Positions 49,646 through 63,612 of a DNA stretch of 64,000 nt are shown here, piece by piece (position 1 is the first letter of the stretch; each line of letters opens with the position of its first letter). The notes under the pieces were generated by a model. The model was given only the letters and a program-made list of their open reading frames with translations. It was not told where the DNA came from and made no database searches. This DNA is from Nitrospirota bacterium (GTDB lineage: Bacteria; Nitrospirota; Nitrospiria; Nitrospirales; Nitrospiraceae), in NCBI GenBank assembly GCA_963701855.1, contig CAVPBK010000004.1, positions 160,001 to 224,000 on the forward strand. Reading direction: 5' to 3'. The position numbers and the translations under genes were made by a program.

Positions 49646-50262
49646 AAGATTTTTCGATACTGGCGTGAGTGCACCCCCGACTCGTCGGCAAAGCCGAGGG
49701 AGGCACTGTCTGGGTTGCCTGTGTCGTTGAGATCGATTCGATAGTGTCCGCGGATGGCTTCCATCGCCGTTTCAAAGGGAACGGCCTGAGGATAGAGGTT
49801 GCCCGGTGCATGTGCGCCGCGGGTCAGGGTGCGGATCACGTCAGCCTTCGCGTACTGAGCATCGGACACAACGTAGATGTCGGCAACGGCGTGGTCTCCC
49901 AGTTTGTGGCCGGGTGTTGTGGCAGGCAAGAGTTCGGTCAAGGTGCCGGCAAGCCGATCATTTTTAAACCGCTTCAAAAGTCCGGCAATTTGGCTGTCGG
50001 TCGCTTCAGGAGGGACCGTGAGACTGATGGCATTCATTTCCAAAATGGTGGCCTGGACTTTGAAAAGCACAGGCGCCGCTTCGGGATCTTCAATGATCGG
50101 TCCGGTTGGTCCTTCCGTACCAGCGGCTTGCTTGTTCTTCGAGCTGGGCACGATGAGAAACACAAAAAGCCAGAGCCCCAACAGCACGCCGAAAATCACG
50201 ATCAAGGGATGAATTCCAGCGCGCTTGCCTTCTTGGTAGGGATGTTTTGGCTCGTCACTCAT
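49642..50262 (-). CDS. Membrane-anchored hypothetical protein
   Basis: Start MSDEPK coupled to mazG stop; single TM helix. Confidence 0.8.
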   Translation of the reverse strand: MSDEPKHPYQEGKRAGIHPLIVIFGVLLGLWLFVFLIVPSSKNKQAAGTEGPTGPIIEDPEAAPVLFKVQATILEMNAISLTVPPEATDSQIAGLLKRFKNDRLAGTLTELLPATTPGHKLGDHAVADIYVVSDAQYAKADVIRTLTRGAHAPGNLYPQAVPFETAMEAIRGHYRIDLNDTGNPDSASLGFADESGVHSRQYRKIF

Positions 50263-51133
50263 CACGGCGTTCCTTGGTAAGGGTGGCAGGATTCTGCTTC
50301 TTGGCTTCGTCCCACAATCGATCCATCTCTGCAAACGAGAGGTCGCTAACCGTACGGCTCGACGCAGCAGCCTGGGTTTCGATGAATTGGAATCGTTCGA
50401 CGAATCGGTTGGCAGCTTGGCGCAGGGCATCTTCCGGGTTCACTTTGATGAATCGGGCGAGATTCACGAGTGAAAACACCACGTCGCCGAACTCCGCAAC
50501 GATCTGCGCTTGTCGTGCTATTGCGGCGCCTGCCTCGGGTTCTATCTGGTTCGACGCAGGGGCTCGGATCGCCGCGCGGAGCTCCTGGATTTCTTCCTCG
50601 ATTTTCCCGAGAATCTGATCGAAGCCTTTTGCGTCATGGGTCCAATCGAAGCCGACGCGCGAGGCGCGGGCTTGAAGTTGGTAGGCCCTCAGAAGGGCCG
50701 GCAGCGTTTTCGGCACGCCGTCGAGCACTGAGTCTGGCCGGCCAGAAGCCTGGCGCTCTATGCGCTTGATATCTTCCCATCGCGCGACTACTTGGTCGGC
50801 ATTCGTCGGGGTCGGGTCAGCCAGCCCATTGCCAAATACGTGGGGATGCCGTCGAACCAATTTGTCGGCCAGTTGTTCGAGCACGTCCTCAATGGTAAAG
50901 CTGCCAGCCTCTGACGCGATCTGACTATGAAAGAGCACTTGCAGCAGCACATCGCCCAGTTCCTCTGGAAGTTTAGCGCGATCCTGTCGATCGAGAATTT
51001 CTAACACTTCGTAGGTTTCTTCGAGCAAATAGGGCTTCAGCGACTCATGCGTTTGCTTACGGTCCCAGGGGCATCCGTCCGGCGCGCGCAACGCGGCCAT
51101 CAAATCGACGAGTGTGTGAAATCGTTCCGACAT
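50255..51133 (-). CDS. mazG: Nucleoside triphosphate pyrophosphohydrolase MazG
   Basis: GCPWDRKQT, EETYE, EELGDVLLQV, RRHPHVF, EFGD. Confidence 0.96.
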   Translation of the reverse strand: MSERFHTLVDLMAALRAPDGCPWDRKQTHESLKPYLLEETYEVLEILDRQDRAKLPEELGDVLLQVLFHSQIASEAGSFTIEDVLEQLADKLVRRHPHVFGNGLADPTPTNADQVVARWEDIKRIERQASGRPDSVLDGVPKTLPALLRAYQLQARASRVGFDWTHDAKGFDQILGKIEEEIQELRAAIRAPASNQIEPEAGAAIARQAQIVAEFGDVVFSLVNLARFIKVNPEDALRQAANRFVERFQFIETQAAASSRTVSDLSFAEMDRLWDEAKKQNPATLTKERRDE

Positions 51134-51306
51134 CGTTCTCCTCATAATAGTCGCACAGAGTTGGGCGCTCATTATACCCGGTTCTCGACAGGCTTCAATC
51201 GGCTGACGTGCCAGTCGGCGCAGCTTGCGCGTTTGTCTAGCGTCTTGCGCCGCTTCAGGGCCTATGGTAGGGTACCGTCGCTGCATCTGGAGCGGGGGAA
51301 AGGCCT

Positions 51307-51699
51307 GTGGCCGCAGAACAGGAAGAAGGATTTGTCGTTCGGGATCGGCGGGGCGGGAGTGGACCCGACCGTCCCTCCACCACTTCGCCTGCAGCGGCGG
51401 AGATACAGCCCCACAAGGAGGCGGCACACTCCGATCCACACCAGGGTTCGGGAATTCCCGTCACCTTTTCATCTTTCGTCATTTCACTGGGCAGCTCTTC
51501 AATGATGTTGATGGGGGAACAGCTAGATCCCCAGCAGCCTCCGATGCCGCCGAATCTACCGCAAGCCAAAGACATTATCGACTTGCTCTCGGTCTTGGAA
51601 AACAAGACCACAGGTAATCTCACGACGGAAGAACAAGCGGTGCTGCGGGATATGCTCTACGCCCTTCGGATGAAGTACGTGAGTTTAGCTGCCACGTAG
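51307..51699 (+). CDS. DUF1844 family protein
   Basis: AKDIIDLLSVLENKTTGNLT.EE...L...LYALRMKY pattern. Confidence 0.85.
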   Translation: MAAEQEEGFVVRDRRGGSGPDRPSTTSPAAAEIQPHKEAAHSDPHQGSGIPVTFSSFVISLGSSSMMLMGEQLDPQQPPMPPNLPQAKDIIDLLSVLENKTTGNLTTEEQAVLRDMLYALRMKYVSLAAT

Positions 51700-51832: not shown

Positions 51833-54190
51833 TTGGAAATGCCGGATGTGAGTGATATCAAGAAAGACACAGGCTCTCTTTCCGGGGCAAAAACGAACCG
51901 TGGTTCCATGACCAGGAGCGCACCACCTTTTGCTGAGAACAGCCGTTCTTCACGGCTATCCGGACCTACTACGGAGCCGGAACGCGGGAAGATGCATTTG
52001 CGGCCAGTCTGGATCGTCCTCATTCTGCTGATTCCCTGTTTAGCGCTGACCTTCTACTACTCTCAGGTCGTGGCTCCGAGTGGCGAGGACACAGATTCCT
52101 TTCTGCCGACGACCAGCTACGCATTCGTGCTCCTGCTGCTCAATCTCGATCTGATCGGGTTTGTGGTCCTGATGCTCCTGCTCTCCCGCAACCTCATCAA
52201 GGCCTATTTCGAGCGGCGGCATCGACTATTTGGGTCGGGATTTCGGACAAAATTGGTGGCGGCCTTCATCGGCTTTTCACTCATCCCGACAGTACTCCTT
52301 GCTCTGGTCGCGAGCGGGCTGGTGAATAAGGCCGTGGATGTGTGGTTCAGCGATCAGATTGAGCAGGTGATGCGGGACTCTTATGACGTGGCAAGAATGC
52401 AGCATGCCGGCCATATTACCCTGGCTGTAAACAGTGCCAGAGCCATCAGCCATGAAATCTATCGGGAAGACATGCTGCTGGCAGCACAACGCGATCTGCT
52501 GGTGGCTGCAATGGCGCGTAAACGGGCAGAATTCGGTGTGGCAGGGATTGAAGTCTTTTCAGCCAAAATGGAAACACTCACCAAGGCATTGGATCTCGAC
52601 GTGCCCTCATCGGCTCTCGATCTGCCGATCGGCCAGCTGGTACTCCAAGTCATCAATGGGAAGCATGAAGTGAATGCGGTGCAGGAGGCTCAAACCGGAC
52701 GTTTGGTGCGGGCTGCGGCCCCCATCGCCGCGAGCGGACGGGCCGGCGAGATCGGCGGCGTCGTCGTCGTCGAGGCCTACGTGCCTGAATCGTTGCTGGC
52801 AAAAATGGAAGGGATCGGCCATCAGTACGACGAGTATAAGCAAACCAAGGCCATGAAAAATCCGATCAAGGCTGGGGCCTATCTCTTCGTTGCCGTCATC
52901 ACGGTGCTCATTTTGTTCGGGGCGACCTGGTTTGGGTTTTATGTCGCACGAAGCATCACGGTGCCGATTCAACGGCTGGCCGAAGCGACAGAGGCCATTG
53001 CCCAAGGGGATCTCTCTGTTCGTATCGAAGCCAAGGCAACCGATGAAATCGGCACGTTGATCGATTCGTTCAACCGCATGACGTCGGATCTGCAAGGGAG
53101 TAAGTCCGAGATCGAAGAGGCCAACATCTCGTTGCGCCACAGCAATCTTGAACTCGATCGCCGTCGCGCCTACATTGAGACAGTCGTCGAAACAATCGCC
53201 GCGGGCTTGCTCTCTATCGACAAGAATGGACTGATCATGAATTTCAATCCGTCCGGTGAACGGATCCTTGGGCTTACAGCGGATCGATTTCGTAGCCGAC
53301 CGGCCAATGAGGTGTTTAAAGAGTTTAAACTCGATCTGTTCCAGACGGTCTACGATCGGATGTTGGCCGATCAGCGCGATACGCTGACGCTTGAGGGCCC
53401 GATGGAGATCGACGGCAGATTCTTGACCATCGGACTTCACGGGTCCCGTATGAAGGATGAAGCAAGTAAGGACCTCGGTATCGTGCTGGTGTTTGAAGAT
53501 CTCACAGAGTTGATCAAAGCTCAAAAAGTGGCGGCGTGGCAAGAGGTGGCGCGGCGGGTGGCGCACGAAATTAAGAACCCGTTGACGCCCATCCAATTGT
53601 CCGCACAACGGTTGCGCAAAAAGTTCTACGAGAAGTCGCCGGATTTCGAGACGATCTTCGACGAAGCCACCAACGTGATCATCAACGAAGTGACGAGTCT
53701 CAAGCATATGGTCGACGAATTTTCGAAATTTGCCCGCCTGCCGACTCCGCAGATGGCGCATCAGTCGCTCCACGATGTGATCAACGAAGTCACGGCGCTC
53801 TATCGAGAGGCTCACAAGGATGTGGAGCTGATCCTGACGCTGGACGAAGACCTCCCGTTGCTCAATTTCGACCGTGAACAGCTCAAGCGGGTGATGGTCA
53901 ATCTGCTGGACAACGCGATTCAAGCGATGCAACAGAAAGGGCGAGTGTGGCTCTCGACGAAGTACGATACGAAGCGTCGGCGGGCCGTGGTGAGCGTGGC
54001 AGATGAGGGCCCGGGCATTGCGCCGGAAGACCGGGAAAAACTGTTTGTGCCATACTTCACGCGGAAAAAGACGGGAACGGGGCTGGGATTGGCAATCGTG
54101 CGGCGGATCATTACCGATCACGAGGGGCAAATTCATGCGAGCCAGAATCAGCCCAAAGGGGCCGTGTTCACGTTCGAATTACCGGTCTAG
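51833..54190 (+). CDS. NtrY-like HAMP/PAS sensor histidine kinase
   Basis: TM helices, GFRTKLV, HAMP, AWQEVARRVAHEIKNPLTPIQL H-box, GTGLGL; start uncertain. Confidence 0.92.
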   Translation: MEMPDVSDIKKDTGSLSGAKTNRGSMTRSAPPFAENSRSSRLSGPTTEPERGKMHLRPVWIVLILLIPCLALTFYYSQVVAPSGEDTDSFLPTTSYAFVLLLLNLDLIGFVVLMLLLSRNLIKAYFERRHRLFGSGFRTKLVAAFIGFSLIPTVLLALVASGLVNKAVDVWFSDQIEQVMRDSYDVARMQHAGHITLAVNSARAISHEIYREDMLLAAQRDLLVAAMARKRAEFGVAGIEVFSAKMETLTKALDLDVPSSALDLPIGQLVLQVINGKHEVNAVQEAQTGRLVRAAAPIAASGRAGEIGGVVVVEAYVPESLLAKMEGIGHQYDEYKQTKAMKNPIKAGAYLFVAVITVLILFGATWFGFYVARSITVPIQRLAEATEAIAQGDLSVRIEAKATDEIGTLIDSFNRMTSDLQGSKSEIEEANISLRHSNLELDRRRAYIETVVETIAAGLLSIDKNGLIMNFNPSGERILGLTADRFRSRPANEVFKEFKLDLFQTVYDRMLADQRDTLTLEGPMEIDGRFLTIGLHGSRMKDEASKDLGIVLVFEDLTELIKAQKVAAWQEVARRVAHEIKNPLTPIQLSAQRLRKKFYEKSPDFETIFDEATNVIINEVTSLKHMVDEFSKFARLPTPQMAHQSLHDVINEVTALYREAHKDVELILTLDEDLPLLNFDREQLKRVMVNLLDNAIQAMQQKGRVWLSTKYDTKRRRAVVSVADEGPGIAPEDREKLFVPYFTRKKTGTGLGLAIVRRIITDHEGQIHASQNQPKGAVFTFELPV

Positions 54191-54289
54191 CACAGAGGTC
54201 AATCATCACTCGTCAATGATCAATCCAAAAAGCGAGCTGGAGATCAAGGCACAGTTGACGCTTTACGTTTCACGTTTTATGGGGGATTC

Positions 54290-55684
54290 ATGTCTGCATC
54301 GATCTTAATTGTGGATGACGAAGAGCCGATTCTCACATCCTTGAGCAGTATTCTACGGGATGAAGGGTATGAAGTAGCGGTGGCCAAGAACGGCGTGGAG
54401 GCGTTGCGCGTCTACACCATGGATCCGCCCGACCTCATGCTCCTCGACATCTGGATGCCGGAAATGGACGGCATGGAAACCTTGCGCCGAGTTCGTGAGT
54501 TGGTGCCGACCGCACAGGTGATGATGATGTCTGGGCACGGCTCGATCGAAACGGCGGTCAAGGCGATCAAGCTGGGGGCCTATGATTATATCGAAAAGCC
54601 CCTGTCGCTCGAAAATGTCACGCTGCGTGTGAAGCATGCCTTGGATCAACACCGGTTGGAACAAGAGAACCGGACGCTCCGAACCACGGTCCAGCGGAAG
54701 TTTGAGTTGGTGGGACAGTCGCCTGCGATGCAGTATTTGCGGCAACTGATCGAGACAGCCGGGCCGACTAATAGCCGCGTGTTGATCGGAGGAGAGAACG
54801 GGACAGGAAAGGAACTTGTTGCGCGGGCGATCCATCTGCAAAGCGCACGGGCCAGCCGGCCGTTTGTGGCGGTGAACTGTGCGGCTATCCCGGAGACCTT
54901 GATCGAGAGTGAGCTGTTCGGACACGAAAAGGGCTCCTTCACCGGTGCAACGTCGATGAAACGCGGGCAGTTCGAGCAGGCGGACGGAGGCACGTTGTTT
55001 CTCGATGAAATCGCCGACATGAGCTTGAGCACCCAGGCGAAGGTATTGCGGGCCCTCCAGGAACAGCAATTCACTCGTGTCGGGGGAACCAAGCTCATGA
55101 AGGTAGATGTTCGGGTGTTAGCCGCGTCCAATAAGGATTTGCTCAAGGAAATCGAGAAAGGCGCATTTCGCGATGATCTCTTCTACCGGCTGAATGTGGT
55201 GCCGATTATCGTACCGCCGCTCAGGGAGCGTCGGGAAGACATCCCGCTCCTCGTTCGCCACTTCATGAAGGTCCATGCAGAAGAGCAGGGGTTGCGGATG
55301 AAAGAGATCTCGCCGGAGGCGATGGTGGTGTTTCAACACTATGACTGGCCGGGGAATATTCGAGAATTGCGGAACCTGATCGAACGATTGATGATCATGG
55401 TGCCGGGACCCGTCATCGATCCAGCGCAAGCGGGTCTTTCCTTACAGGCGCGTCCAACTGGGCCGGCGTCCCAATCTGCGATTCCCATAGCCAATCCACT
55501 TTTCACGCAGTCGTATGACTCGCTCAGAGACGCCCGCAATGCATTTGAAAAGGACTATATCGCGAGAAAGTTACGTGAGCATCATTGGAACATATCCCGC
55601 ACGGCTGAAGAGTTGAAAATCGAACGAAGTCATCTCCATCGGAAAATCAAGTTGCTGGATGTGGAGATGCGGCCGGAGGGATAG
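54290..55684 (+). CDS. NtrX-like sigma54-type response regulator
   Basis: Receiver (VDDE, LDIWMP), GENGTGKE, ESELFGHEKGSFTGA, C-terminal HTH. Confidence 0.93.
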   Translation: MSASILIVDDEEPILTSLSSILRDEGYEVAVAKNGVEALRVYTMDPPDLMLLDIWMPEMDGMETLRRVRELVPTAQVMMMSGHGSIETAVKAIKLGAYDYIEKPLSLENVTLRVKHALDQHRLEQENRTLRTTVQRKFELVGQSPAMQYLRQLIETAGPTNSRVLIGGENGTGKELVARAIHLQSARASRPFVAVNCAAIPETLIESELFGHEKGSFTGATSMKRGQFEQADGGTLFLDEIADMSLSTQAKVLRALQEQQFTRVGGTKLMKVDVRVLAASNKDLLKEIEKGAFRDDLFYRLNVVPIIVPPLRERREDIPLLVRHFMKVHAEEQGLRMKEISPEAMVVFQHYDWPGNIRELRNLIERLMIMVPGPVIDPAQAGLSLQARPTGPASQSAIPIANPLFTQSYDSLRDARNAFEKDYIARKLREHHWNISRTAEELKIERSHLHRKIKLLDVEMRPEG

Positions 55685-55939: not shown

Positions 55940-56977
55940 ATGACAACCTATCGAGATGCCGGAGTCGATATCGATGCGGGTGACGAGTTCGTCGACCGGA
56001 TTTCACCACTGGTGCGATCCACGTTCCGTCCGGAAGTCCTGACGGACCTCGGCGGATTCGGTGGATTGTTTAAGCTGCAGGCCCATCGCTATGCCGAACC
56101 AGTCCTTGTCTCCGGCACGGATGGAGTCGGAACGAAATTGAAGATCGCCTTCCTCACGGATCGTCACGATACCGTCGGAATCGATCTGGTGGCCATGTGT
56201 GTCAACGACATTGTGGTCAGCGGGGCCGAACCCCTGTTCTTTTTGGATTATTTCGCAACGGGAAAGCTTGCCGTCCCCAAGGCTGAGTCCGTGCTCAAGG
56301 GAATCGCCGAAGGCTGTCGCCAGGCCGGCTGCGCCTTGATCGGTGGGGAAACCGCCGAGATGCCCTCCTTCTATGCAGAGGGCGAGTATGACCTGGCTGG
56401 GTTCGCCGTCGGAGTGGTGGATCGGCCTAAGATCATCGATGGCCGCAGCATTGTGCCAGGCGATGTCCTGATTGGATTGGCTTCTACCGGTCTTCATAGC
56501 AACGGCTATTCGTTGGCACGCCGTGTCTTGTTGGATCAGGCACAACTCAGCGTGACTAGTCGCCTGACTGATCTCGATCAGCCACTTGGGGACGTCTTGC
56601 TGACTCCGACCAGAATTTACGCCAAACAGATTCTCACCTTGATCCAGGAATATCCCATCAAAGGCATTGCCCATATCACCGGCGGGGGCATTACCGAGAA
56701 TCTCCCGCGAGTATTTCCCTCCGGCTTGCGGGCACAGGTGCGGCGAAGTGCCTGGTCCGTGCCACCTATTTTCCAAGCGATTGCACGGATTGGACAGGTC
56801 GAGCGTGAGGAGATGTATCGCGTTTTCAACATGGGAATTGGGTTGATTCTCGTGGCGCCGGCAGCAGTCGCCCAGTCTATCGTCGCGCGTGCCACATCGT
56901 TGGGCGATCCGGCTTGCCAAATCGGGACCATGATCTCATCGATCGACGGGGAGGCATTGGTGGAGTATGTCGACTAA
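55940..56977 (+). CDS. purM: Phosphoribosylformylglycinamidine cyclo-ligase
   Basis: YRDAGVDI, TDGVGTK, GGETAEMP, HSNGYSL, HITGGG. Confidence 0.98.
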   Translation: MTTYRDAGVDIDAGDEFVDRISPLVRSTFRPEVLTDLGGFGGLFKLQAHRYAEPVLVSGTDGVGTKLKIAFLTDRHDTVGIDLVAMCVNDIVVSGAEPLFFLDYFATGKLAVPKAESVLKGIAEGCRQAGCALIGGETAEMPSFYAEGEYDLAGFAVGVVDRPKIIDGRSIVPGDVLIGLASTGLHSNGYSLARRVLLDQAQLSVTSRLTDLDQPLGDVLLTPTRIYAKQILTLIQEYPIKGIAHITGGGITENLPRVFPSGLRAQVRRSAWSVPPIFQAIARIGQVEREEMYRVFNMGIGLILVAPAAVAQSIVARATSLGDPACQIGTMISSIDGEALVEYVD

Positions 56978-57641
56978 GCGAACGGATGCGCTGCGAGTCG
57001 CCGTGTTGGCATCCGGACGCGGATCGAATCTTCAGGCGGTCATCGACGCGATCGAAGCGGGGACGGTCTATTCAAAGATTGTCGCCGTTATCAGCAACAA
57101 GAAAGACGCCCCAGCATTAGATCGCGCCCGCCGACAGGGACTCTCCGGTCTCTTCGTCGATCCCAAGCCCTATGCAGGTAGACCCGACAGCCGTGAGGCC
57201 TACGATCGCGAACTACTCAATGTGCTTCGGCAGCATGATGTGGAGTTGGTGTTACTAGCCGGGTACATGAAAATTGTGACCCGTGTCCTGGTTGAGGCCT
57301 TTGCAAATCGCATGATGAACATCCATCCGTCTCTGTTGCCTTCTTTTCCAGGGTTGGATGTGCATAAGAAGGCAATCGAATGGGGGTGCAAACTTTCCGG
57401 ATGTACGGTCCACTTTGTGACGGAAGGCATGGATGAAGGGCCGATCATTCTTCAAGCGGCGGTGCCGATTCTCGATGATGACACTCCCGACACACTGGCC
57501 GCTCGAATTCTTGATCAAGAGCACAAGATCTACCCGCGAGCAGTCCAGCTTTTTGCCGAGGGGCGCCTGCGGGTTGAGGAGCGCCGAGTATTCATCGAGG
57601 CTGGAAAGCCGGAGGGTGAGTCGGTGATCAGCCCGTCATAG
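56967..57641 (+). CDS. purN: Phosphoribosylglycinamide formyltransferase
   Basis: SGRGSNLQA, LAGYM, NIHPSLLP, DEGPII. Confidence 0.98.
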   Translation: MSTKRTDALRVAVLASGRGSNLQAVIDAIEAGTVYSKIVAVISNKKDAPALDRARRQGLSGLFVDPKPYAGRPDSREAYDRELLNVLRQHDVELVLLAGYMKIVTRVLVEAFANRMMNIHPSLLPSFPGLDVHKKAIEWGCKLSGCTVHFVTEGMDEGPIILQAAVPILDDDTPDTLAARILDQEHKIYPRAVQLFAEGRLRVEERRVFIEAGKPEGESVISPS

Positions 57642-57810
57642 CGTTACGCGCAGGCAGGAAGAGGTCAAGACTGAGGCTGCGCGAGGAGAATTATATTTTC
57701 TCAGCCTCGGCATAGGCCTCGACCTGTTTCGGCTAGAGACTCAAGAAACGGTCGTGTATAATATGATCGATGGTGAGGCGCTCGTCTCTCCTGTTGAATG
57801 TCGATCGAGT

Positions 57811-57886
57811 GGGGGGCTAGCTCAGTTGGGAGAGCACTACGTTCGCAACGTAGGGGTCGGGGGTTCAACTCCCCTGCCCTCCACCA
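57811..57886 (+). tRNA. tRNA-Ala (CGC)
   Basis: GGGGGGC...GCCCTCC-ACCA with G3:U70, anticodon loop TTCGCAA, GGTTCAACTCC. Confidence 0.95.
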
Positions 57887-57892
57887 AAATAC

Positions 57893-57916
57893 CACAGTAT
57901 ACCTAGGTATACTGTG
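57893..57916. repeat. Perfect 24-bp palindrome CACAGTATACCTAGGTATACTGTG
   Basis: Direct reading; 6 nt after tRNA CCA. Confidence 0.9.
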
Positions 57917-57996
57917 AGTCATTCGAAGTGGCCTATTTCCGAAAGAGGAGAGTCGTCAGTCAGCACGGCGATCATCCCTGAGATCCTGTGACCACC

Positions 57997-58911
57997 TCAC
58001 GGTGTCCCTTCCTGCACGGTCACATTGGCCCGCCCGATCTCGGTTGTCGTGCCTTCCAGGTAGAACACGAACTCCACCTTATGCGAGCCAGTGCCGAACC
58101 GCCCCGTCGTCGCCGTCAGGCCATTGTCATTAGGGAAGCCATAGGGTGCGTCATGTTCGACATGATGGACGACCCCATCTAAGAGAACCGTCGCCATAAC
58201 ATCCCGGAAATCGGTTGTAGACCCCTCCACACCCCACATACCGGCGGCAGGAAAGCCCACGACCGTCAAATTCACGTTCCTCATCGCGGGAGGCGGCGGG
58301 GGCGCAGACGGGTCCCCTTCCTGCACGTTCACATTGGCCCGCCCGATCTCGGTTGTCGTGCCTTCCAGGTAGAACACGAACTCCACCTTATGCGAGCCAG
58401 TGCCGAACCGCCCCGTCGTCGCCGTCAGGCCATTGTCATTAGGGAAGCCATAGGGTGCGTCATGTTCGACATGATGGACGACCCCATCCAAGAACACCGT
58501 CGCCATAACATTCCGGAGGTCGGTCGTGTCCCCTTCCACACCCCACATACCAGCGGCAGGATTACCCACGACTGTGAGCCTCACTGTCGTCATAGGGGGT
58601 GGGGACGGGGGCGAAGACCCGACGGGAGTAAAGGTCGCGAGGTTGCTAATACCCGACTCATTGTTGGTCGAGTCATATGCGGTAATAAAATAATAGTGAG
58701 TGATTGCCGGTGTTCCAATATCGAAACTAGTCCCCGTTCCTAATGTGATGAGAAGAGTCCCGGACGATTTGATACAGGGCAGGAGACTGCATTGATAGAT
58801 ACGATAGCCCGCCAGATCCGGTTCACTATTGGAATTCCAGGTCAACGTGGCACCCCACGCACTACTAGACGAGAACATCAGAAAACACGCGATGGCTCTT
58901 ATCCAGTTCAT
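57997..58911 (-). CDS. Secreted protein: fibronectin type III-like domain plus two tandem Ig-like repeats
   Basis: Signal peptide, LTWNSNSEPDLAGYRIY...YFITAYD..NES FN3 pattern, Pro linkers, 103 aa repeat period. Confidence 0.85.
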   Translation of the reverse strand: MNWIRAIACFLMFSSSSAWGATLTWNSNSEPDLAGYRIYQCSLLPCIKSSGTLLITLGTGTSFDIGTPAITHYYFITAYDSTNNESGISNLATFTPVGSSPPSPPPMTTVRLTVVGNPAAGMWGVEGDTTDLRNVMATVFLDGVVHHVEHDAPYGFPNDNGLTATTGRFGTGSHKVEFVFYLEGTTTEIGRANVNVQEGDPSAPPPPPAMRNVNLTVVGFPAAGMWGVEGSTTDFRDVMATVLLDGVVHHVEHDAPYGFPNDNGLTATTGRFGTGSHKVEFVFYLEGTTTEIGRANVTVQEGTP

Positions 58912-59073
58912 TCGGACACTCCTATAGGTATGTGCTCACCGGCAGTAGGCACACCAGTCTCGGAGAAGCCAACTTCTCGCGAACAAGTGCCTCTGTCGGA
59001 TTGCAGAACTGACTCCGTCAACCGAGGAGAGATTGAAGAGGGCAATCGTTTACCTCTTCACTGTGGTAATTAC

Positions 59074-59088
59074 GCAAGGTGCGTGCCG
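59074..59088 (-). promoter_or_regulatory. Candidate sigma54 (-24/-12) promoter for the FN3 gene
   Basis: Minus strand CGGCAC-GCACC-TTGC matching GG-N10-GC. Confidence 0.5.
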
Positions 59089-59302
59089 TCGCAGGCGGAG
59101 GATGGTCAGAGCAAAAGCCCTGGAAATGAGCTATGGCGAGCGAAATACTGATGGTGGTGTGCTGGGAAACTGTAGGAGACGGGAGCAGATTATTCAGGCA
59201 ATGCTAGCATTTCTCGGAGGATAGACACTGCAGTCGGTTGCCTTCAGATACGACAGTGAAGAATGATACGGAGGTAATCGGTTAATAAACCCGTCACGAC
59301 AT

Positions 59303-59337
59303 AACAAAACCCCCAGAAGCCGTGCCTGCTGGGGGTT
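59303..59337 (-). terminator. Rho-independent terminator-like hairpin
   Basis: Minus strand AACCCCCAG-loop-CTGGGGGTT followed by TTGTT. Confidence 0.65.
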
Positions 59338-59951
59338 CATGCGATCAGCGCGAGCGTGTGAATTTCAAAAGAAAGCGCGTCGGTTAACGACGGTAGGAAC
59401 CCCTGTGGGTGCCCAACCCTCAAGGATTAAAAATGAATGGAGATTGAGACAGACCACTGTCTTGATTTGGAATGGGCGCGGGTGAGCAAGATTTGATGGC
59501 AGTCCCACTTCGGAGAGAGAGACTTTCCAGTGAGGACCCCTTGGCGATACTAGGACCAAAGGGGTGTTCCTCTTGTGATACGATCGGATTGGTAGGCGTT
59601 CCCAGTTGATCACCAGACAACGCCCGTTGATTCAGATCTGACTCTTTTTTTGTGATGCCTCGACGGGGTAAGTGACAGATAGACATCGCGGGATGGCAGT
59701 TCTGGCGAGAGGTCGGAATTGGTGAGTTTTTGTGGTCCCAGTCGCCGTACTCCCGTGGAGCCAGTGCATCCGGCGAAAGGCAAAGCCCCACGAGTACGAC
59801 AACTGCAATTCCATCCATTTAACAACATTGTCTCCTTCACCTAACGATCCGTCAACGGATAGACTCTTTTTTCCTTTCTTCCCTTCGCGGTGTTCGCAGC
59901 GGCACACGAATCGTGGGGTAAAATAAATCAGGTAGCGGGCACCCTCCACCA

Positions 59952-61199
59952 AAATAGCATTAACTACCTAGGTATTATATTACCATTCCGCTTCAAAGAA
60001 AAACCAGACGTTGTTGGCCTTATTTTCGAGGCGGAGTTCGTCAAGACCTCGCTGAAACAGAAATACGGAATCACAGACTGATCTAGCATCTTACCCTCTT
60101 CTTCCTGATTGACTATTGCCATACGCCGGTGTATGAGCTATCCGAATCAAATACCTGTGTGCGATAGATGGCTGAAAGGGAACGAATGACCATGAGCGAC
60201 CACACATGAGAAGCAGTTTGACTTTCCGTGTCATACACACACCAAAGGAGGCGACGATGCGACGTATCCTAGGGATCGTGGCGATCTCTCTTCTCATCGG
60301 GGCAAGCGGCTGCGCCTCGACACAAGAGGCCAAGTCGGTAGAAAAATCAGGCTTTCTTGGTGACTATTCCAGGCTGAAGGAAGGCCAAAGAGGCAGCTTC
60401 ATGTCGCAAGGGGCGGAGGGCCAGGCCTTGTTGGTCTATAAGAATCCTGACGCCGATTGGCGAAAATATAAGAAAGTGTGGCTGGATCCAGTGAAAGTCT
60501 GGATGAATCAGAAAGACTCACAGCTCAACGACGTGGCGGACGAAGATCGGCAACGGCTGGCGGGGTTGCTCTGGTCGAAGGTGAACGAACAGCTCAAACA
60601 AGATTACGTGATGACGAGTACCCCTGGTCCGGACGTAATGCGCATCCAAATGGCCATTACCGAAGCCGCATCTTCCAACCCCTTTATGGATTTTCTCACG
60701 AGCATCTATTTGCCGGCGAAATTGCTGTTGACTCCGAAGAGCATGGCCACCGGCGTGGCAGCATTCGCGGGCAGTGCGAGTGCAGAATTAAGGGTAACCG
60801 ATACTGCCACTGGAACTGTTCTCATGGAAGCAGTCGATCGCCGGGGCGGTACGAAGAGTCTCGGTGGGTCCTGGTCCTCCTGGAACGACGCCGAAGAATC
60901 GTTCCGTTTCTGGTCCGAAAAGATGCGCTATCGCTTATGCCAATTTCGAGGGGGCATGGACTGCGTGGAGCCGAAGGCCTGAAGGTCAGGTAAGCACCGC
61001 GCTCATCTTGTACGGCGAGCGCGGTACTGTTCCCCGCTGGCGGCCCTGGCCCCTGTGAGACCCCCTCAGCGCAGTGAAATCCTCAAGGTTTTCGGGTTTA
61101 AATAATGCCCGAATCGAGCCCCCGCAACCAACTGGGGAGGGCGCAGCGGCACCTTGATTTTGGGGCTGAAATAATTTATGCCTCGGTTGCCCTCCACCA
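59952..61199. mobile_element. Putative non-autonomous tRNA-Ala cassette 2
   Basis: Bounded by CCCTCCACCA at 59942-59951 and 61190-61199; end motifs shared with cassette 1. Confidence 0.65.
60257..60982 (+). CDS. DUF3313-like lipoprotein
   Basis: AAGGAGG SD, ASGC lipobox, SGFLGDYSRL motif. Confidence 0.85.
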   Translation: MRRILGIVAISLLIGASGCASTQEAKSVEKSGFLGDYSRLKEGQRGSFMSQGAEGQALLVYKNPDADWRKYKKVWLDPVKVWMNQKDSQLNDVADEDRQRLAGLLWSKVNEQLKQDYVMTSTPGPDVMRIQMAITEAASSNPFMDFLTSIYLPAKLLLTPKSMATGVAAFAGSASAELRVTDTATGTVLMEAVDRRGGTKSLGGSWSSWNDAEESFRFWSEKMRYRLCQFRGGMDCVEPKA

Positions 61200-61446
61200 C
61201 CATTGTTGCCAATTCGCACCCCCGTCAATAATCGATCAAAGGTGCCCGTCGCCGTAAAGCGATACCCTGCCTTTCCCCCATCCATAATCGGCTCATAGAC
61301 TATGTGTCCATCTAAGAGCTTTTTAAGCATCTGGCGGGCGGGTGGCACGTGGCGAGCGAAGAGAGCAAGAATGTCTTCCAGAAGGCTTCGGAGCTCTTTG
61401 GCGAGACGCTTGGCGTCCAGGGAAACCACTTGAGCGAAGGCATCGA
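61190..61446 (-). pseudogene. C-terminal remnant of a probable large serine recombinase
   Basis: ARQMLKKLLDGHI..EP...GYRFTATG...NGGGGQ; GGGGQ is encoded by the antisense of the tRNA 3'-end copy; no catalytic domain upstream; family is recollection. Confidence 0.55.
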
Positions 61447-63612
61447 TTATTTCGTGACGACAACATCGACCCGACCTTCTTGTCGCAGGATGGTGATGCC
61501 GACATCCTGCGCCTGACGTTCAAGCGAGAGGTCAACTACGGCGTCTCCAATCCTCAGATTTTTCATCTCAATGTGGTCCAGAAACGGCGGCAAGACCGGT
61601 TGGAAGAACGACAGGCGACTCCGAGTGGCCTCAATTTGCAAACCGAGGCAGGATTGGAGCAGCAGAAACACGGCGACTGAGGACCACGTCTGAGGATTAC
61701 AGGCAACCGGGTAGAGCGTTGGACCTTCACCTGGGCGACGTGGGAAGCCGCACAGCAATTCAGGCAACCGATGCAGTTCGAGAAACATGGTGGCGTCGAA
61801 GAGTCCGCTAAGAATCTTCAATGCGCCTTGTTTGAATCCGTAGGAGGCCATCCCCGCTGCGATCAGGGCATTATCGTGCGGCCAGACCGATCCGTTGTGG
61901 TATGCCATCGGATTAAAGCGGGTCTCAGTCGCTGCCACGGTTCGGACCCCCCATCCGTTAAACAATTCTTCACCCATTAAGGTCTTGGCCGTTCTCATGC
62001 CGTGCTTTTTGTCGGCAATACCGGCCCAGAGGCAGTGGCCGGCATTCGACGTCCTGACACGACAAGGCTGCTTGAACCCATCCAACGCTAACGCGTAGGA
62101 CGAGAGATCGTTGCACCAGAAGCGTCGCTCGAACTGAGTGCGTAACGTGTCCGCCTCCTTGAGCAAACGTCTGGACTGCTCGGTATGGCCCAGCGCCACC
62201 GCTAATTGGGCCGCACGCCGTTTAGCGGCAAACACATACCCTTGTACTTCGCAGAGCGCGATAGGCCCTTCCGCCAGGCTGCCATCTGCATGAAATACGG
62301 CATCCTGCGAATCCTTCCACCCTTGATGGATAAGCCCGTCTTTCGACCGGCGGGTGTACTCCACGAAGCCATCGCCATCGAGATCCCCCGTATGATCAAT
62401 CCACTGCAACGCAAGCTCAATATTCGGCCAGATTTGTGTGATGAAAGCCTTATTGCCTGTTCGTTCGTAATAGGCTCCGGCCAGCATAATGAACAGTGGC
62501 GTCGCGTCGATGCTACCGTAGTAGCGACCGTACGGAATCTCGTTAAGGGCCGCCATCTCCCCCTTCCGTGTTTCATGCAAAATCTTGCCGATCTCAGCGT
62601 CCTGCTCCGGTAGAACTTCCTTCGCTTGTGTCGCAGCCAGATAGGCCAATACCCCTCGGGCGATGCTTGGATTAATCCACAGAAATTCGAATGCGGTGAT
62701 GAGGCCGTCGCGTCCGAATGGGGTGCTGAACCATGGAACCCCGGCGTAGGGGTATGGGCCGTCAGAAGTGTCTGAGACCATCATGTGGAGGTCGGCCAGC
62801 GCGCGGTTCAGCCACATATTGAATTGCGCATTCGATGTCACGATGTGGCAGTCGTCAGCCCTAGCGGAATGGAGCGCTCGCTCCACTTCGACGAGTGCAT
62901 GCTCATATGAATGATCACACCTGATTCGCTGGGTGACTTCACAGGAGATAGTCAGATCCCACTGGACAACTTCTCCCGCCGGCAAGAACGTATCGAAGCG
63001 AATCTCCTCGGGATAGACTGCCGTCGGAGCCGGTGCACAACGGACAGTGACCCACCGTTCCACATGATCTAACCCCTCATATCCGAGCGATAGTCCGTCC
63101 TTGAACATGACGGACTCTAACCGTCGGCCTCGCCGGCTTCGTATCGTCCCACGGACTTCGAACAGGTCGGCAAAATCCGCATCCACTGAGACGGAGAGCC
63201 GGACCGGAACGGGATGGAGGCTATAATTGTGCACTCGAAGGCGCTCGAAGCAGAGGCCTTGCCACAAGAACCGAGTTCGAGACAAGTGCAGCGATCCACG
63301 CGAAATTTGTACCTGTCCGTCAGCGGCCATGTCAGGATTCGTGAGATCGACGTTGAGCAAGACATTGTCTTGCTTGACCGTCGAGCTGAGCAGCAACGGC
63401 CGTTCCCCATTGAGGGTCAGCACAAAATGGGACAGAAAACGGGTCCCTTCATGGTAGAGGCCATGCGAGCCCGTTCTCAGAGAATGGATGTCGCCGTATT
63501 GATCGAACAGGCCGAACGTGTCGCCTTGCTTCAGCACCTCGATGTGGTCGTCGGTCAGCGAGGAGGAGGCCACAATCTGATATTGATCAGTCCGACGTTC
63601 GACGTGTTCCAT
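61447..63612 (-). CDS. Amylo-alpha-1,6-glucosidase / glycogen debranching-type glycoside hydrolase
   Basis: AGVPWFSTPFGRD, GKILHE, YYGSIDATPLF, QGWKDS, YHNGSVWPHDN. Confidence 0.93.
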   Translation of the reverse strand: MEHVERRTDQYQIVASSSLTDDHIEVLKQGDTFGLFDQYGDIHSLRTGSHGLYHEGTRFLSHFVLTLNGERPLLLSSTVKQDNVLLNVDLTNPDMAADGQVQISRGSLHLSRTRFLWQGLCFERLRVHNYSLHPVPVRLSVSVDADFADLFEVRGTIRSRRGRRLESVMFKDGLSLGYEGLDHVERWVTVRCAPAPTAVYPEEIRFDTFLPAGEVVQWDLTISCEVTQRIRCDHSYEHALVEVERALHSARADDCHIVTSNAQFNMWLNRALADLHMMVSDTSDGPYPYAGVPWFSTPFGRDGLITAFEFLWINPSIARGVLAYLAATQAKEVLPEQDAEIGKILHETRKGEMAALNEIPYGRYYGSIDATPLFIMLAGAYYERTGNKAFITQIWPNIELALQWIDHTGDLDGDGFVEYTRRSKDGLIHQGWKDSQDAVFHADGSLAEGPIALCEVQGYVFAAKRRAAQLAVALGHTEQSRRLLKEADTLRTQFERRFWCNDLSSYALALDGFKQPCRVRTSNAGHCLWAGIADKKHGMRTAKTLMGEELFNGWGVRTVAATETRFNPMAYHNGSVWPHDNALIAAGMASYGFKQGALKILSGLFDATMFLELHRLPELLCGFPRRPGEGPTLYPVACNPQTWSSVAVFLLLQSCLGLQIEATRSRLSFFQPVLPPFLDHIEMKNLRIGDAVVDLSLERQAQDVGITILRQEGRVDVVVTK

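Follow-up and report, generated by a model that had tools for sequence, protein, structure and literature searches.

Two stacked recombinase-less units behind a tRNA-Ala gene of a Nitrospiraceae genome, probable derivatives of large serine recombinase elements

The closest described parallels to the locus analysed here are stacks of genomic islands laid down by large serine recombinases (LSRs). In the ssrA islands of Dehalococcoides, the CcrB-like LSR DsiB drives the formation of tandem islands, some of which carry no recombinase; for 15 islands without an integration module, that account proposes mobilisation in cis (McMurdie et al. 2011, PMC3146451). Our subject is a 64-kb stretch of DNA from a Nitrospirota bacterium, hereafter the window (contig C4:160001-224000 of a 4.3-Mb, 15-contig genome bin labelled G000), in which two small units with one gene each lie behind the 3' end of a tRNA-Ala(CGC) gene. 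We think it probable that they are recombinase-less derivatives of LSR elements specific for this tRNA, resembling cis-mobilizable elements (CIMEs), which were stacked by repeated integration and decay and are now stranded in this genome.

As far as the description of the Dehalococcoides islands goes (PMC3146451), both systems have a serine recombinase gene on the reverse strand beside attL, at the 3' end of a tRNA-like gene. In both, a short direct repeat of the gene end bounds the units (20 bp there, 10-12 nt here), a conserved motif stands just upstream of each repeat, and several islands follow in tandem. In contrast to the tmRNA targeted there, the target here is a true tRNA (Ala-CGC, with Ser, Glu and Met in sister clades of the recombinase), the host belongs to the Nitrospiraceae and the units, of 1.2-2.1 kb and one gene each, are much smaller. 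Furthermore, the recombinase open reading frame (ORF) ends inside the tRNA, and in the element of a relative, G014, described below, no second small recombinase like DsiA was seen; the likeness to DsiB is one by description. The composite islands of the staphylococcal cassette chromosome (SCC), such as pseudo-SCC and the arginine catabolic mobile element (ACME), resemble our locus, in the outline given in PMC7029136, in that LSRs integrate into the 3' end of a conserved gene, which is restored in the process. There too, direct repeats (18 bp) mark the stacked units, some units without ccr genes keep the repeats, and the cargo includes surface proteins. They differ in their target, the protein gene rlmH, and in the size of their units, which run to many kb.

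Two further systems grow by accretion. The CIMEs of the ICESt1/ICESt3 family, in the passages of PMC5704250 that treat them, retain attL and attR and have lost the genes for integration and transfer; the model set out there has an element integrate and decay before a further one enters at the retained site. Unlike the units studied here, the cases on record rely on tyrosine integrases together with conjugative partners. The same source states that site-specific integrative mobilizable elements with serine recombinases usually insert inside genes and disrupt them, whereas here the tRNA is restored. In the tycheposon islands of Prochlorococcus, according to the portions of the preprint on which we draw (bioRxiv 10.1101/2020.12.28.424599), a tRNA likewise acts as the seed, newcomers push older elements outward, and partial tRNAs and broken integrases remain; in contrast, 474 of 501 tycheposons carry tyrosine recombinases, and the units are larger and often satellite-like.

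The tRNA gene, the repeats of its end and a broken recombinase gene define the present locus:

57811 to 57886, plus strand: tRNA-Ala(CGC), the attachment target (ARAGORN; Rfam tRNA at 62.6 bits).
57877 to 57886, plus strand: first core copy, the final 10 nt of tRNA-Ala(CGC).
59942 to 59951, plus strand: second core copy, again the final 10 nt of the tRNA.
61190 to 61199, plus strand: third core copy; here the match to the tRNA end reaches 12 nt, starting at 61188.
61187 to 61450, minus strand: 3' remnant of an LSR gene, found in a six-frame search with the G014 protein.

An earlier note on this DNA, made from the letters alone, had pointed to the three core copies in one orientation, and they are indeed present at the positions listed. 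The core 10-mer, CCCTCCACCA, has four plus-strand copies in the window (51373, 57877, 59942 and 61190); 0.18 are expected in a shuffled window, and none of 100 shuffles reached four. Genome-wide, over 4.3 Mb and both strands, there are 17 copies. The fourth copy in the window, at 51373-51382, lies inside an unrelated long minus-strand ORF (50255-51439) with no similarity in its flanks and is most likely due to chance. The other three delimit segment 1 (57887-59941) and segment 2 (59952-61189), the two units. Their GC content (0.47-0.58, against 0.53-0.59 in the flanks) gives no clear foreign signal.

The insertion itself is seen directly in relatives. Forty of them were searched with window positions 56900-61700, and the loci were then read directly. 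In five (G007, G011, G013, G014 and G020), the tRNA is joined directly to the homologue of window 61188-61446, with the core common to the matches on both sides. What lies between the tRNA and 61199, 3.3 kb in all, is a precise site-specific insertion at the 3' end of the tRNA gene. Empty sites of this kind had been anticipated in the earlier note, as had variable arrays behind tRNA-Ala(CGC), whose content does differ between genomes. Contigs of independent sequencing runs span 57807-58100 (junction 1, with 0 differences) and 60848-61204 (junction 3, with 4 differences); junction 2 is crossed by none of the listed pieces from such runs.

The remnant beside the third core identifies the enzyme. 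It measures 264 nt, or about 88 codons, and corresponds to residues 487-574 of the 576-aa G014 protein (75% identity, E 1.9e-36); since only these residues are kept, with the catalytic and DNA-binding domains gone, the supposedly integrase-less array ends in a broken recombinase gene. The description of the cassettes as devoid of a recombinase thus holds for the interior of the units but not for their immediate neighbourhood. A tblastn search for further LSR fragments in 57800-61150 gave none, and no intact cognate LSR was found in this genome, where the best other match is partial and 37% identical. In G014, the 576-aa ORF adjoins the tRNA on the opposite strand and converges with it; the final codons of the ORF, stop included, fall within the tRNA gene. 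Its Pfam domains (Resolvase, Recombinase and Zn_ribbon_recom) make it an LSR, and not the tyrosine integrase typical of tRNA islands.

For serine integrases, the usual account is one of insertion inside protein genes. In the genus examined here, homologues of this LSR (E<=1e-10) occur in 37 of 85 genomes. We inspected 21 full-length or long copies, leaving out the G014 locus L017, at which a non-LSR ORF had been picked: seven adjoin tRNA-Ala(CGC), three tRNA-Ser(GCT) and eight tRNA-Glu(TTC), and three have no tRNA in the stretch examined. Two more distant copies (G073 and G047) adjoin tRNA-Met(CAT); both had been considered as further elements ending in the right arm R1 (see below) and were rejected, given this tRNA. 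Wherever a tRNA adjoins, the LSR ORF runs into its 3' end, and the LSR clades track the tRNA species. The sister-clade ORFs at tRNAs Ser, Glu and Met (loci L071-L089, L103 and L105) end at varying depths inside the tRNA.

The ends of the two units were compared with ends collected elsewhere. Hidden Markov models of the arms were built from the ends of other genomes only, with the core excluded, and run on the plus strand of the 64-kb window; two types of right arm, R1 and R2, recur across genomes, and the left ends here are of the type called L-a:

57887 to 57917, plus strand: L-a left end of segment 1, with a 24-nt perfect palindrome at 57893-57916 (L-a model, E 0.054).
59952 to 59991, plus strand: L-a left end of segment 2 (19-sequence L-a model, E 1e-4 in the genome and 7e-7 in the window).
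59891 to 59941, plus strand: R1 right arm of segment 1 (nhmmer, E 7e-12 in the genome and 5e-14 in the window, 59891-59939).
61141 to 61189, plus strand: degenerate R1-like right arm of segment 2, ending in TG (window E 0.41, 61141-61174).
59359 to 59405, plus strand: R2-like right arm inside segment 1 (nhmmer with a 14-sequence R2 model, E 0.025 in the genome; best match in the window, E 2e-4).

The L-a model has its best match in the window at the left end of segment 2 and its second best at that of segment 1 (57899-57917); the R1 model ranks the arm of segment 1 first and that of segment 2 second. The right end of segment 2 and the left end of segment 1, being second-best and weak matches, are weak members of their families, and the R1-like arm of segment 2 gives no genome-wide match to the R1 model at E<10. 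The matching left ends with equal spacing reported earlier are borne out: the two are 82% alike over 34 nt, both are found by the model from other genomes, and TACCTAGGTAT occurs on the plus strand of the whole genome only at 57900 and 59965, equally spaced from the core. The right ends also match as claimed: their identity is 75% over 24 nt and, with a single offset of 1 nt, 70% over 37 nt, and AAATAA begins 21 nt before the core in both. A second left motif (57929-57958 and 60015-60043) is common to these two places, and to these only in the genome, but its offset from the core is 52 nt in one case and 73 nt in the other.

The L-a ends betray their origin. Translated in the LSR frame, on the opposite strand, they yield a tail resembling the LSR C-terminus; in the left end of segment 1, 14 codons are open in that frame, and in G070 a match to the LSR C-terminus (residues 511-551, E 3e-7) follows directly after L-a. 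The palindrome and its A-run form, on the minus strand (57917..57892), a terminator-like hairpin followed by a T-run, suited to the converging cargo gene. To judge from these features, the left end combines a diverged tail of an LSR gene with a terminator hairpin. The left end of segment 2 is 76-88% alike to left ends around other cargo, and the pattern, as had been foreseen, occurs around other cargo more widely: in 10 of 85 genus genomes (reversed-pattern controls gave 0) and in 12 metagenome contigs. L-a is always preceded by the tRNA or by a conserved right arm. In 185,579 species genomes, the exact pattern was found in eight stretches, six of them in Nitrospiraceae/Nitrospirales bins, of which five are genus genomes already counted; the remaining two, in a Vibrio and a Cyclobacteriaceae genome, are likely chance matches.

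On the right side, R1 closes the intact LSR element of G023, and R1 homology stops at TG with or without a core after it. In G023, the 50 bp running from R1 through the core into the left end resemble an attP, with a dyad symmetry whose centre is the TG immediately before the core; sites composed of R1, core and the left end L-b (G023 and G083) have 16-17 of 25 dyad matches with the centre at -1.5, the 95th percentile of shuffles being 14. As the dyad centre lies there and R1 homology ends at TG, we take the TG at 57875-57876, just 5' of the core, for the putative crossover dinucleotide. TG is found in six of seven aligned right ends; the arm of segment 1, at junction 2, ends in CA at 59940-59941. 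No recognisable core follows the R2-like arm at 59359-59405, and its position suggests that segment 1 may be a composite, an L-a...R2 cassette of about 1.5 kb fused to a remnant of about 0.5 kb.

Like integron cassettes, the units are small, mostly carry one gene, have conserved ends and are stacked at one site. The integron likeness drawn in the earlier note does not extend to the mechanism, however: no IntI-type tyrosine recombinase gene lies on the contig, the cargo occurs in both orientations, a tRNA gene serves as anchor and the R2 arms show no conserved hairpin. A search of 14 R2 arms for an attC-like or structured-RNA fold gave a consensus of -4.4 kcal/mol with 7 predicted pairs and almost no covariation, and among Rfam families the tRNA alone matched at the locus. 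The first interpretation, non-autonomous cassettes moved in trans in the manner of an integron, is half right.

These observations can be brought together as follows. The LSR would cut at the TG just 5' of the final 10 nt of tRNA-Ala(CGC), and an incoming element would bring along a copy of these 10 nt within its P' arm. Because of this copy, the tRNA would be restored and the old core pushed downstream; and because the inner half of the right half-site would be regenerated each time, entry could be repeated at one place, the stack growing with the newest unit next to the tRNA. Deletions would then strip the recombinase and most other genes, and the residue would consist of a left end (recombinase tail and terminator), one useful exported-protein gene and a right arm. 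Several vestiges speak for such decay: the left ends preserve recombinase tails, the 4.6-kb units of G055 and G083 retain internal LSR fragments, and segment 1 contains an R2-like arm. Since the left ends are remains of the 3' end of an LSR gene, the units would descend from autonomous elements; since this genome has no intact cognate LSR and the junctions are degraded, with the dyad lost in the reconstituted circles and CA in place of TG before the second core, they are probably stranded in it. The units would match the definition of CIMEs: their att-derived flanks (cores, L-a and R1 arms) are recognised by models from other genomes, two of the four arms weakly, and no LSR or PF00589 signal is found inside them, where Pfam gives DUF3313 or nothing.

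A number of points weigh against this account. A full-length LSR was found behind none of the 21 L-a sites, for 14 of which 1.3 kb or more of sequence was available, so that an autonomous parent of the L-a type has not been seen; among 20 further LSR loci, none has an intact recombinase with an L-a end. The intact recombinase element with the same ends that the earlier note hoped for is therefore found in part, through the related ends and the R1 arm of G023, but not with L-a. G023 is also the single intact tRNA-Ala element shown to end in R1; at the far end of the G014 element, between the HTH gene and the flanking hydrogenase genes, no repeat of the tRNA end and no R1 or R2 arm was recognised. 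The dyad that is evident with L-b amounts to 13 of 25 for R1 with L-a, within chance, and is absent for R2 with L-a and for both reconstituted circle junctions of the window, and the crossover point is itself inferred. For classical serine integrases, attL is not a target; entry of a further element at the site would have to depend on the regenerated 10 nt, and SCC and Dehalococcoides offer precedents for such re-entry. Lastly, copies of R1 and R2 also occur at a distance from the tRNA, on seven or more contigs of this genome and for the most part next to degenerate cores. An R1 model that takes in the window's own copy has matches in 48 of 85 genus genomes, some beside no core; there are up to eight per genome, sometimes 0.5-1 kb apart. 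These may be old arrays dispersed by rearrangement or insertions at secondary sites, and the proposed course of events explains them loosely.

Both cargo genes appear to encode exported proteins:

57997 to 58911, minus strand: cargo of segment 1, a 304-aa protein from the ORF list, with a signal-peptide-like N-terminus by eye.
60206 to 60982, plus strand: cargo of segment 2, a DUF3313 protein (Pfam PF11769, E 5e-44).

The Pfam match of the second upholds its earlier assignment to DUF3313; the gene has a lipoprotein-like signal and, by eye, a likely true start near 60257 behind a ribosome-binding site, and a paralogue lies at C9:336801-337471 (81% nucleotide identity). The proposal of an FN3/Ig-like protein for the first fares less well: the protein has no Pfam match, its single-sequence fold is unusable (pLDDT 37), and the look-up with a language model, which ranks an fn3 cluster first at 0.90, is a lead only. 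The gene contains a 309-nt tandem duplication (57999-58298 and 58308-58607, 89% alike). Its paralogues in the genome have 72-75% nucleotide identity, and one of them stands 1.4 kb downstream of tRNA-His (C6:1289324-1290635). Complete L-a...R2 units measure 1.36-1.53 kb, and each holds one minus-strand gene whose product has a signal- or lipoprotein-like N-terminus by eye. The L-a...R2 cargo proteins are of 223 aa (G069, G076 and two metagenome contigs), 190 aa (another) and, in the window, 304 aa. Larger units of 4.6-4.8 kb with L-a and R1 ends in G055 (L044) and G083 (L045) encode a KaiC-like ATPase and a CheB-type methylesterase; they also hold the 223-aa lipoprotein gene and an internal LSR fragment.

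The surroundings of the array deserve a brief description. Homology to relatives stops at 61446/61447, a synteny break inside the recombinase gene remnant; a rearrangement or deletion at this point removed the remainder of the recombinase element. The glycogen-debranching-type gene that follows (61447-63612, minus strand) is unrelated to the array and lies elsewhere than beside tRNA-Ala in relatives. At 54 kb downstream, a 25-nt copy of the tRNA-Ala 3' end (G000:C4:271641-271674; locus L026:7641-7675) is followed by the decayed tail of an LSR of another subfamily, and a 96%-identical match to the closest relative, G015, starts exactly at this repeat; dispersed repeats otherwise swamped that search. 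More R2 and R1 arms are present at C4:279848-280752. Given the far repeat with its LSR tail and these arms, the array region may exceed 60 kb or be split. Ends (10-20 nt) of other tRNAs of this genome recur downstream of them as well (Glu-TTC three times, Lys-CTT three times, Thr-CGT twice, and others); on contig C12, with tRNA-Glu(TTC) at 71533-71610 on the minus strand, an LSR homologue (54071-55060) lies just past one such end repeat. The G014 element behind tRNA-Ala is a compact one of about 4.5 kb (L017:4716-9144) with genes for the LSR, a RadC-like JAB protein, a Rep_trans replication initiator and an HTH_17 protein that is a candidate directionality factor; short repeated motifs are found near its far side.

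One could also regard the units as active: non-autonomous one-gene mini-elements moved in trans by LSRs encoded elsewhere or carried in cis by a neighbouring element, which would shuffle genes for exported proteins at tRNA-Ala much as an integron does. We consider this possible, though on balance unlikely, and are equally doubtful that the L-a...R2/R1 units constitute a living class of cassettes of about 1.4 kb which tRNA-specific LSRs move in trans. The idea draws on the fact that cassettes with unrelated cargo share just their first 34-92 nt and last 79 nt or so, at 76-88% identity, on the uniform one-gene, export-like make-up of the L-a...R2 units, and on the same lack of a full LSR at all 21 L-a sites that troubles descent from an autonomous parent. 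The 223-aa cassette, moreover, is found directly behind the tRNA (G069), behind R1-ended units (G083 and L068) and behind R2-ended units (G055, G076 and G091), with three kinds of downstream neighbour among four complete copies. Between G069 and five other sources, it is 93-95% identical while purM-purN are 86-87% identical, and this higher conservation in the G069 pairs hints at transfer of the cassette. Ccr activity on ccr-less SCC-type units has experimental backing, in which they differ from the present ones. However, the terminator hairpin and descent from a recombinase tail could account for the conservation of L-a; newer insertions nearer the tRNA, deletions and homologous exchange can produce differing contexts; and units that have lost their ends would have escaped detection, an ascertainment bias. 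The two units of the window have weak or degraded arms in a genome without a cognate LSR. No circle or deletion joint appeared among the listed contigs of four soil-metagenome runs from four studies, low-depth contigs that are uninformative either way.

Two other readings are much less probable. That the units are eroded tRNA islands of tyrosine integrases, with the serine recombinase gene as unrelated cargo, would fit the established role of tRNA 3' ends as classic targets of these enzymes, to which the tycheposon preprint also attests where it deals with integration, and the length of the 25-nt far repeat is typical of such islands. Yet none of the 22 PF00589 matches in the genome is on contig C4, and the tRNA-Ala contigs of five relatives have none; the LSR gene is fused to the tRNA end in every intact case, the LSR is the sole recombinase seen in the small G014 element, and even the far repeat precedes a decayed LSR tail. 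We therefore find the tyrosine-integrase origin very improbable. More improbable still is that no insertion took place and that the repeats arose by chance, by local duplication or by mis-assembly of a metagenome bin. In its favour stand the shortness of the core (10 nt), the weak right arm of segment 2 and the division of the genome bin into 15 contigs, but the shuffles do not reproduce the core count, relatives join the flanks exactly at the cores, arm models from other genomes match at the predicted places, and independent contigs cross junctions 1 and 3.

In the full-text literature covered, there was no description of LSRs that target tRNA genes in Nitrospirota, the nearest case being the tmRNA of Dehalococcoides. 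That LSR elements gather accessory genes is known, and the present lineage of nitrite oxidisers provides an instance; what is new are the true tRNA targets, the recombinase ORF that ends inside the tRNA, the lineage itself and the very small one-gene units. A whole family of LSRs in this lineage targets tRNA 3' ends (Ala, Ser, Glu and Met) and builds stacks of small units with accessory genes. Should stranded derivatives of the kind favoured here prove immobile, the locus is a clean record of the growth and decay of a tRNA-anchored island. If the units can still move, they would offer a cheap means of exchanging envelope proteins between strains, and would supply compact pairs of serine integrase and att site that are naturally tRNA-specific. 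And if movement in trans were true, the Nitrospiraceae would possess a gene-capture platform akin to the integron, run by a different enzyme and anchored in a tRNA gene.

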